From Escherichia coli (GTDB lineage: Bacteria > Pseudomonadota > Gammaproteobacteria > Enterobacterales > Enterobacteriaceae): 64,000 nucleotides of DNA. Positions 4,818 to 5,486 of this stretch are shown in pieces. The notes beneath the pieces are model-generated. The model was not told where the DNA came from, searched no databases, and was given only the letters and a program-made list of their open reading frames with translations. Each line of letters begins with the position of its first letter. Position 1 is the first letter of the stretch. The stretch lies in the NCBI RefSeq assembly GCF_017348835.2, contig NZ_CP071375.1; one strand, 5' to 3'. The position numbers and the translations under genes are program-made.

Positions 4818-5486
4818 ATGCCCGTCAAGGATTTGACGGGCATTACTGCAAAGGACGCGCAAATGTTATCTGTAGTTAAACCTCTTCAGGAATTTGGTAA
4901 GCTCGATAAATGTTTGTCCAGATACGGTACGCGCTTCGAGTTTAATAATGAAAAGCAAGTTATATTTTCCAGTGATGTCAATAACGAAGATACTTTCGTT
5001 ATTTTAGAGGGCGTTATCTCTCTGCGCAGAGAAGAAAACGTACTTATCGGTATTACCCAGGCTCCTTATATTATGGGGCTAGCTGATGGTTTAATGAAAA
5101 ACGATATACCATACAAATTAATATCAGAAGGAAATTGTACGGGATATCATCTACCAGCCAAACAAACCATTACGCTTATTGAACAAAATCAACTCTGGCG
5201 AGACGCTTTTTACTGGTTAGCCTGGCAAAATAGAATTCTGGAATTACGCGACGTGCAGCTCATTGGGCATAATTCCTACGAACAAATCCGCGCAACATTA
5301 TTATCAATGATTGACTGGAATGAAGAATTGCGATCACGTATTGGTGTGATGAATTATATCCATCAACGTACACGCATATCGCGTTCTGTCGTCGCAGAAG
5401 TTCTCGCTGCTTTGCGTAAAGGCGGCTATATCGAAATGAATAAAGGCAAACTGGTCGCTATCAACCGTTTGCCTTCAGAGTATTAA
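4818..5486 (+). CDS. yaiV: Putative transcriptional regulator with C-terminal HTH
   Basis: 222-aa ORF in the K-12 yaiV position; HTH-like segment RISRSVVAEVLAALRKGGYIEM; the first codons overlap a perfect hairpin, so the true start may be the Met at 4863. Confidence 0.75.
   Translation: MPVKDLTGITAKDAQMLSVVKPLQEFGKLDKCLSRYGTRFEFNNEKQVIFSSDVNNEDTFVILEGVISLRREENVLIGITQAPYIMGLADGLMKNDIPYKLISEGNCTGYHLPAKQTITLIEQNQLWRDAFYWLAWQNRILELRDVQLIGHNSYEQIRATLLSMIDWNEELRSRIGVMNYIHQRTRISRSVVAEVLAALRKGGYIEMNKGKLVAINRLPSEY

Follow-up and report, generated by a model that had tools for sequence, protein, structure and literature searches.

A 30-nt stem-loop, hp2 (4816-4845, plus strand), lies in the 87-nt spacer between ehaB (yaiT) and iprA (yaiV) of Escherichia coli, and sequence comparison indicates that it is a conserved plus-strand RNA structure. 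We tentatively interpret hp2 as a 5'-proximal leader hairpin of the iprA mRNA that is coupled to the iprA promoter. Whichever promoter fires, hp2 belongs to the plus-strand 5' untranslated region of iprA and is predicted to leave the ribosome-binding site (RBS) open. All positions are those of the window, the whole 64-kb stretch of E. coli DNA analysed here. No mention of an iprA stem-loop was found in the accessible literature.

A perfect 13-bp stem-loop between ehaB and iprA

The locus begins with an intact open reading frame for an EhaB/YaiT-type autotransporter of 984 aa (1821..4775, plus strand, stop TAA 4773-4775), followed by the iprA coding sequence (4863..5486, plus strand, 207 aa plus stop in RefSeq). 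The ampH gene (5487..6644, minus strand) is convergent with iprA and separated from it by no intergenic gap. IprA contains an HTH_46 winged-helix domain, and its N-terminal region is weakly cNMP-binding-like. In K-12, yaiT is disrupted by IS3.

A repeat search placed the two arms of hp2 at 4816-4828 and 4833-4845 (TAATGCCCGTCAA and TTGACGGGCATTA). They are 13 nt each, 100% complementary and 4 nt apart, with the loop GGAT at 4829-4832 and a GC core of GCCCG/CGGGC. The stem starts 41 nt past the ehaB TAA and ends 5 nt before the iprA Shine-Dalgarno (SD) sequence. The original prediction had correctly seen a perfect hairpin just downstream of yaiT, but its 10-bp stem at 4818-4846 has to be replaced by 13 bp spanning 4816-4845. 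The string on which it relied, ATGCCCGTCA-AGGATTTGA-TGACGGGCAT, counted TGA twice, the real sequence being ATGCCCGTCA-AGGATT-TGACGGGCAT (4818-4843). Because of this duplication its end at 4846 was misplaced, and its 9-nt loop was likewise wrong.

The inverted repeat at hp2 is far beyond chance. As RNA, hp2 folds with -20.4 kcal/mol on the plus strand (z = -6.3) and -22.4 kcal/mol on the minus strand (z = -7.2), and 0/200 shuffles folded as stably. It is the longest perfect hairpin of the window, in which perfect stems of at least 10 bp occur at 5 loci versus 0.6 expected from dinucleotide shuffles; stems of at least 13 bp appeared in none of these shuffles. Rfam covariance models searched against hp2 at a permissive E-value returned nothing above chance (rli38, 23 bits versus a threshold of 49; mir-3913, 17 versus 100). 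A smaller, AU-rich hairpin, hp1 (TTCTTC-ACTCC-GAAGAA; 4778..4794, plus strand, -4.8 kcal/mol), is located directly 3' of the ehaB stop. At this position a hairpin is kept between species with differing arm sequences, and the Enterobacter clade has a canonical terminator there.

Base pairing of hp2 is maintained across genera

Over positions 4600-5600 the window matches strain PE164 at 100% identity, and this segment was found in 5418 of 5426 complete E. coli genomes. For the 50-nt hp2 region, 5372 of 5389 E. coli records show an identity of 99% or more. hp2 occurs once in the 64-kb window and is single copy in the genomes, the 'second place' per E. coli genome being the palindrome matching its own other strand. 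A REP-like repeated element was ruled out by this single copy. Outside E. coli, hp2 precedes iprA in Escherichia, Salmonella, Citrobacter, Raoultella, Yokenella and Trabulsiella, and it recurs where C. farmeri and C. arsenatis carry a paralogous autotransporter-iprA locus.

Among close relatives the sequence of hp2 is almost identical, and in more distant relatives the pairing is kept with other bases. In an alignment of 19 distinct taxa/sequences, 95.2% of the cells were paired, versus 29-48% in slid controls. Double-sided (compensatory) changes were present at 5 of 12 pairs, which 0/500 shuffles matched. A G-C pair is replaced by A-U in C. rodentium (GCCCATCA..TGATGGGC), a U-A by A-U in C. 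gillenii (AAGCCC..GGGCTT) and an A-U by U-A at the C. farmeri paralogue (TTGCCC..GGGCAA). At the C. arsenatis paralogue, C-G has become U-A and G-C has become A-U (ATGTCCATC..GATGGACAT), and in Yokenella three inner pairs are changed on both sides (ATGCCCACCAT..ATGGTGGGCAT). The GC-rich base is the most conserved part of hp2; the top and the loop vary, with GGAT, GGAC, GGAG, GAAA, GAAT, GACT and GCAA as loop variants.

The single-sided changes were informative about the strand. All four of those in the core stem give G·U pairs on the plus strand and would give A·C on the minus strand, and cells compatible with the minus strand were confined to the loop-closing pair, which is itself open in many taxa. 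Because compensatory changes occur together with G·U pairs valid only on the plus strand, the alignment indicates that hp2 is a conserved plus-strand RNA structure. The same pattern argues against a DNA palindrome recognised by a protein and against a purely minus-strand element.

hp2 as a candidate 5'-proximal leader hairpin of iprA

A promoter in the ehaB-iprA spacer, TTCACT-18-TTTAAT, has been proposed from genomic SELEX with RNAP-σ70 (Shimada et al. 2014, PMC3946193). Its -35 hexamer TTCACT maps to 4781-4786 and its -10 hexamer TTTAAT to 4805..4810 on the plus strand, which implies a transcription start site (TSS) near A4817. The hexamer TTTAAT is part of a conserved -10-like block, GGTAATTTAATC (GGTWATTTAAYC), which precedes the stem by 5-8 nt in almost every taxon and also at the paralogous loci. 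At the C. arsenatis paralogue this spacing is kept although the distance from the stem to the SD is doubled; Yokenella is without the block and Trabulsiella has a partial one. Occupancy of the region was also reported by ChIP-seq, in which a σ70 peak at U00096.2 393682, equal to window position 4815, rose from 82 to 509 anaerobically (Myers et al. 2013, PMC3688515). Because the stem lies 5-8 nt past the -10-like block at which RNAP and σ70 were found, transcripts are predicted to begin at about A4817.

In the leader interpretation, transcription from the promoter with block GGTAATTTAATC would start at about A4817, and iprA transcripts would carry hp2 at, or a few nucleotides from, their 5' end. 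There hp2 would serve as a protective, insulating stem-loop that hinders 5'-end-dependent decay (RppH/RNase E), with a presumed effect on mRNA stability. It may also keep the adjacent U-rich spacer and the SD free from upstream pairing, and may be a structural barrier to read-through transcripts from ehaB. Translation of iprA starts at ATG 4863 from AAGGA (4851-4855), neither of which is covered by the stem.

What favours this interpretation is the combination of a 13-bp perfect plus-strand stem under apparent selection for pairing, its coupling to the conserved block, the published σ70 SELEX and ChIP-seq signals in the spacer together with an FNR ChIP-seq peak at 393651 (window position 4784) and FNR-dependent behaviour in Δhns/ΔstpA (Myers et al. 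2013), and an SD and start codon predicted to be accessible. hp2 is also a poor canonical terminator in E. coli, with the plus-strand tail ATTACTGC (3 U in 8).

Several observations count against it. The proposed -10 was not called in a simple consensus promoter scan, as TTTAAT lacks A at position 2. The only yaiV TSSs in Kim et al. 2012 are two very weak ones inside yaiT, at 393035 (2 reads) and 393395 (4 reads), about 650 and 290 nt upstream, respectively, and none is listed in the ehaB-iprA spacer. Neither iprA/yaiV nor ehaB/yaiT is mentioned in the SMRT-Cappable-seq supplements. A second promoter arrangement is suggested by the FNR site GTGACGTAGATCAA, predicted at 4723-4736 within the 3' end of ehaB (Myers et al. 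2013, Table S6, PMC3688515). This site fits a class II promoter starting near 4771, and hp2 would then lie 45 nt into the leader. The block GGTAATTTAATC may moreover be a CyuR site rather than a -10 element: a CyuR site, GAAgAAATacTgGtAATTTAaTC, has been predicted at 4789..4811 (plus strand) upstream of yaiV, a gene that was up 4.5 log2 with cysteine (PMC11408624). Finally, the GC-rich base, variable top and U-rich 3' flank of hp2 are terminator-like too, and the taxa without hp2 have a canonical terminator in the same spacer.

Terminator functions on either strand

These last features are shared with the explanation that comes closest to the leader hairpin, namely that on the plus strand hp2 ends ehaB/yaiT transcripts as a leaky intrinsic terminator or protects their 3' end as a hairpin. 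We regard this as possible but rather unlikely. Such an element would separate the expression of ehaB from that of iprA, which would be supplied by read-through or by re-initiation at a nearby promoter. The position of hp2, a GC-rich stem-loop shortly past the ehaB stop codon in a short spacer, is that of a terminator, and so is its pattern of conservation, with a constant GC-rich base below a variable top and loop. Most taxa have a U-rich sequence 3' of the stem (ATTTATTG for the C. freundii group, AATTTTTG for C. farmeri, ATTTTTAT for Yokenella and TTTTATGC for C. gillenii), and the plus strand is also the one favoured by the G·U pairs. Enterobacter, Pseudenterobacter and 'Citrobacter' 18056, which are without hp2, each have one canonical GC-stem plus T-run terminator in its place. 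Within the window, the other two perfect hairpins in co-directional positions (31768 and 33488) are canonical terminators with 6 T in the 8-nt tail each; those between convergent ORFs (47310 and 62458) are not, with 3 and 2 T.

The tail of hp2 in E. coli, however, fits this explanation poorly, since on the plus strand it has only 3/8 U after the GC core and 1/8 after the full stem. Measured against a U tract of at least 5/8, the E. coli plus strand falls below, Citrobacter reaches 5/8 and Yokenella 6/8, and the E. coli minus strand has 5/8. A plus-strand terminator scan was negative in E. coli, Citrobacter FP75, C. farmeri and Yokenella, and a canonical terminator in E. coli was rejected on this result. 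The d'Aubenton-Carafa discriminant, to which little weight should be given here, came out below zero in 23 of 25 taxa. At the C. arsenatis paralogue the hairpin persists and is followed by a non-U tail (TGCTTCAT), and a promoter immediately upstream would fire straight into hp2. No yaiV/iprA 3' end is listed in the Term-seq data of Adams et al. 2021, a weak negative given poor expression and the disruption of yaiT in K-12. The roles of hp2 as leader hairpin of iprA and as terminator of ehaB are not mutually exclusive.

A minus-strand or bidirectional terminator, which would stop antisense transcription across iprA, such as ampH read-through, before it enters ehaB, is improbable. ampH is the only annotated source of minus-strand transcription able to reach hp2, and because the two genes iprA and ampH abut without a spacer, transcription of ampH inevitably extends into iprA. 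Of the two folds, that of the minus strand is slightly stronger, and the minus-strand tail is U-richer than the plus-strand tail in Escherichia, Salmonella and several Citrobacter (ATTATTTA, ATTTTTCA and ATTTTTTA); the scan called the site of Salmonella salamae terminator-like on the minus strand. Against this, the wobble pairs of the core stem are all valid only on the plus strand, Yokenella and Trabulsiella are without a minus-strand U tract (2 U in 8), and 640 nt separate the site from the ampH stop. Adams et al. 2021 list no minus-strand 3' end here, and only one inside ampH.

Protein-binding alternatives: a DNA operator and a CsrA site

The palindrome could in principle act as DNA, binding a dimeric transcription factor (perhaps IprA itself) as an operator that overlaps the transcription start. 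A perfect 13-bp inverted repeat adjoining the σ70-bound region, its near-invariance within E. coli and the winged-helix fold of IprA are what one would expect of such an operator, but we think it a poor candidate. What was suggested by invariance among close relatives was downgraded by the more distant loci, where pairing is kept and base identity is not (5 pairs carry compensatory changes, and the centre and loop vary), and where the asymmetric changes are exactly those that preserve RNA G·U pairs. The published predicted FNR and CyuR sites (4723-4736 and 4789-4811) lie elsewhere, and a site for either regulator on the palindrome itself was rejected.

CsrA-type translational control would have a CsrA dimer bridge the GGA of the loop (UCAAGGAUUUGA) and the GGA of the SD and thereby block ribosome binding. 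The SELEX consensus of CsrA is RUACARGGAUGU, which the hp2 loop UCAAGGAUUUGA resembles. We defined a site pair as a loop GGA plus an SD GGA 10-63 nt away, and GGA 4829-4831 and GGA 4852-4854 are spaced by about 22-23 nt. E. coli and 20 of 25 aligned taxa have a GGA in the loop, and all orthologues have one in the SD. The stem is nevertheless kept where the loop GGA is lost, in 5 of the 25 aligned taxa and at the C. arsenatis paralogue (the losses comprise E. fergusonii, C. braakii, the C. farmeri and C. arsenatis paralogues, Yokenella and Trabulsiella), and a 13-bp stem is much longer than typical CsrA hairpins. The names yaiV, iprA and b0375 are absent from the 13 supplementary files of an E. 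coli CsrA CLIP-seq study, a weak negative given low expression. On this sequence evidence, control by CsrA would be a distinctly unlikely function of hp2.

Translation of iprA starts downstream of the stem

hp2 contains an ATG (4818..4820, plus strand) within its 5' arm, which is the start of the legacy, now obsolete, yaiV annotation. The yaiV ORF in the mechanical ORF list runs from there (4818-5486, 222 aa), and the 222-aa form is found in legacy GenBank records, e.g. AAG54721.1. The original prediction of an overlap between the hairpin and the annotated yaiV start holds for this legacy form only, because the RefSeq start is 4863 in PE164 (100% identical), W3110, MG1655 (NP_414909.2, 394506..395129) and one divergent strain. 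Its alternative suggestion, that the real start is Met 4863, agrees with RefSeq, with the NCBIfam IprA family model and with the SD AAGGA (4851..4855, plus strand), which is 5 nt 3' of the stem and 7 nt 5' of the ATG.

Homologues tell the same story. The 207 positions of the NCBIfam IprA equivalog correspond to residues 16-222 of the 222-aa ORF, IprA homologues are nearly all 207-208 aa long, and 25 related loci also indicate a start equivalent to ATG 4863. The SD is kept as (C)AAGGA among relatives. Conservation of the upstream 15 codons was checked in 20 related loci and found wanting, with stops, frameshifts and loss of the ATG. E. albertii has an in-frame TAG 3 codons ahead of its Met4863 equivalent, and in C. 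gillenii and Citrobacter Res13 the codon immediately before the iprA Met is TAA. In 8 of 20 Citrobacter/Salmonella loci the hairpin ATG lies 43, 44, 46 or 47 nt from the Met, which puts the two in different frames, and compensatory stem changes have turned this ATG into AAG in C. gillenii and TTG at the C. farmeri paralogue. A 15-codon coding extension from 4818 was ruled out by these frames and stops, the family model and the homologue lengths.

Predicted folding and anti-SD pairing also separate the two codons. ATG 4863 is preceded by an anti-SD duplex of -5.3 kcal/mol, and it lies together with its SD outside hp2, about 50-60% unpaired in predicted folds. No SD was found before ATG 4818, where the best anti-SD duplex is misplaced and reaches -2.8 kcal/mol, and this ATG is 99% paired in predicted folds. 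These results indicate that ATG 4863 is the true iprA start and that ATG 4818 is not a functional start, a correction already known and present in RefSeq.

Start-codon sequestration, in which the hairpin would control translation by burying ATG 4818, is scarcely credible even though this ATG is in frame with iprA in E. coli and buried in the stem (P(unpaired) 0.01), because it is neither conserved nor a credible start: it has no SD, the extension behind it is broken by stops or frameshifts, some relatives have lost it, both RefSeq and the family model begin at 4863, and the real SD and ATG lie outside the stem.

For annotation, the first codon of the legacy 222-aa YaiV entries, and of one or more independent gene calls (Trabulsiella, 223 aa), is an ATG that owes its existence solely to a conserved RNA stem. 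The real protein is the 207-aa IprA, so hp2 should not be taken as start-codon control.

Implications for the control of iprA

The stem-loop and the AT-rich block form a conserved module that accompanies every autotransporter-iprA pair in the Escherichia/Salmonella/Citrobacter group, paralogous loci included. Because of this conservation, the module is a defined target for the study of iprA silencing or induction by H-NS, FNR, CyuR or cysteine. Masking by H-NS has been described at this locus, with FNR- and O2-dependent yaiV expression seen only in Δhns/ΔstpA, and the anaerobic rise in σ70 and FNR occupancy came without a matching change in wild-type mRNA (Myers et al. 2013, PMC3688515).

A more far-reaching idea, to which we give little credence, is that hp2 would act close to the promoter as a regulated RNA switch controlling IprA, the oxidative-stress regulator, either through a clamp by CsrA or another RNA-binding protein across the GGAs of the loop and the SD or as a promoter-proximal attenuator. 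The attenuator version, if true, would explain why the anaerobic rise in σ70 and FNR was not followed by wild-type mRNA; with either version, H2O2 resistance would be tied to carbon or redox state at the post-transcriptional level. We regard hp2 as an ordinary stem-loop of the leader or terminator type, which challenges no current concept.

Comparison with known systems

Hairpins that sequester an RBS or start codon, such as translational operators and RNA thermometers, resemble hp2 in lying near a translation start and in having an ATG buried in the stem. The ATG buried in hp2, however, is not the real start; the real one lies with its SD outside the stem, and both are predicted to be accessible. 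With REP/BIME elements hp2 shares an intergenic location, a GC-rich palindrome free of imperfections and a possible ability to protect 3' ends; it differs from them in being single copy per genome, in having no similarity to the REP consensus and in being syntenic across genera.

The likeness to intrinsic terminators and intercistronic attenuators, bidirectional ones included, is closer. hp2 has a GC-rich conserved base, A-rich 5' and U-rich 3' flanks and a position shortly past a stop codon, and it is replaced by a canonical terminator in related genera. It departs from them in the poor plus-strand U tract of E. coli (AUUACUGC), in the negative plus-strand consensus scan and in a sequence far more conserved than that of a typical terminator.

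5'-proximal leader hairpins protect E. coli mRNAs from 5'-end-dependent decay. Emory, Bouvet and Belasco are said to have found in 1992 that 5'-terminal stem-loops of the ompA 5' UTR type stabilise mRNAs in E. coli. Unlike the ompA hairpin, hp2 has a predicted 5' end, has a longer and more GC-rich stem and lies only 41 nt past the stop codon of another gene. Like it, hp2 is a stable stem-loop, predicted to stand 0-3 nt from the 5' end, and is followed by a U-rich single-stranded stretch and then by the SD, so that the RBS is not occluded.

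The autotransporter gene and loci related to it

Upstream of iprA lies an intact autotransporter ORF of 984 aa (window 1821-4775), annotated in RefSeq as autotransporter or EhaB, and its K-12 counterpart is the pseudogene yaiT, which IS3 has split. Paralogous autotransporter-hairpin-iprA modules were found elsewhere on the chromosome in C. farmeri (locus L031) and C. arsenatis (locus L038), where the gene 3' of the module is LacI-type or unknown, in place of ampH. The entire three-part unit appears to have been duplicated at these two loci, and its hairpin has been retained there via compensatory changes.

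In the region before the iprA homologue, the conserved hairpin was absent from the Enterobacter, Pseudenterobacter and 'Citrobacter sp. 18056' loci (L033, L035, L036 and L023), whose IprA identity was 51-54%. These loci carry a canonical terminator, a GC stem followed by a T-run, immediately after the autotransporter stop, and their spacer has the same length as that of the hairpin loci. Separately, an Enterobacteriaceae-type autotransporter-iprA locus (L024) was observed on a contig labelled Chryseobacterium sp. 18061. It is nearly identical to the 'Citrobacter sp. 18056' locus L023, both come from one project, and the Chryseobacterium assembly is probably mislabelled or contaminated.

The start codon in Trabulsiella

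In Trabulsiella odontotermitis (L032, 601-672), the gene was independently called as a 223-aa product beginning at the hairpin ATG. The alignable start (MPQLNKPL...) is situated 45 nt downstream of that ATG, with a TAGGA Shine-Dalgarno sequence in front of it. The 223-aa call is the same mis-annotation as the legacy E. coli entry.

Other hairpins and the iprA-ampH junction

Besides the iprA hairpin, perfect stems of 10 bp or more occur at only four places in the window (31768-31791, 33488-33515, 47310-47336 and 62458-62485), each just 3' of a stop codon. Two are canonical plus-strand terminators, with 6 T in 8; of these, the hairpin at 33488 lies 20 nt 3' of one ORF and 26 nt 5' of the next. 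The remaining two are situated between convergent ORFs.

A weak second hairpin (TTCTTC-ACTCC-GAAGAA, window 4778-4794) directly follows the ehaB stop. Interspecies comparison showed that this position retains a hairpin with differing arm sequences. Salmonella, for example, has the arms TTTCTC..GAGAAA after the autotransporter stop, and C. amalonaticus has CATTCCC..GGGAATG. The proposed -35 element (4781-4786) and the predicted CyuR site (4789-4811) both overlap the E. coli hairpin.

At the other end of the gene, iprA and ampH are convergent with no base between them: their stop codons adjoin, that of iprA ending at 5486 and that of ampH starting at 5487. Therefore, each gene's transcript must terminate within the other. 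For ampH, a weak terminator-like site was located on the minus strand inside the 3' end of iprA (window 5466-5453).

Comparison with published FNR and σ70 occupancy

An anaerobic increase in σ70 occupancy has been described upstream of iprA, without a reported change in wild-type mRNA (Myers et al. 2013). The ChIP-seq peak centres of that study correspond to window 4784 for FNR and window 4815 for σ70. With the FNR site predicted at 4723-4736, and with a class II promoter, both centres would be expected about 50 bp further upstream.
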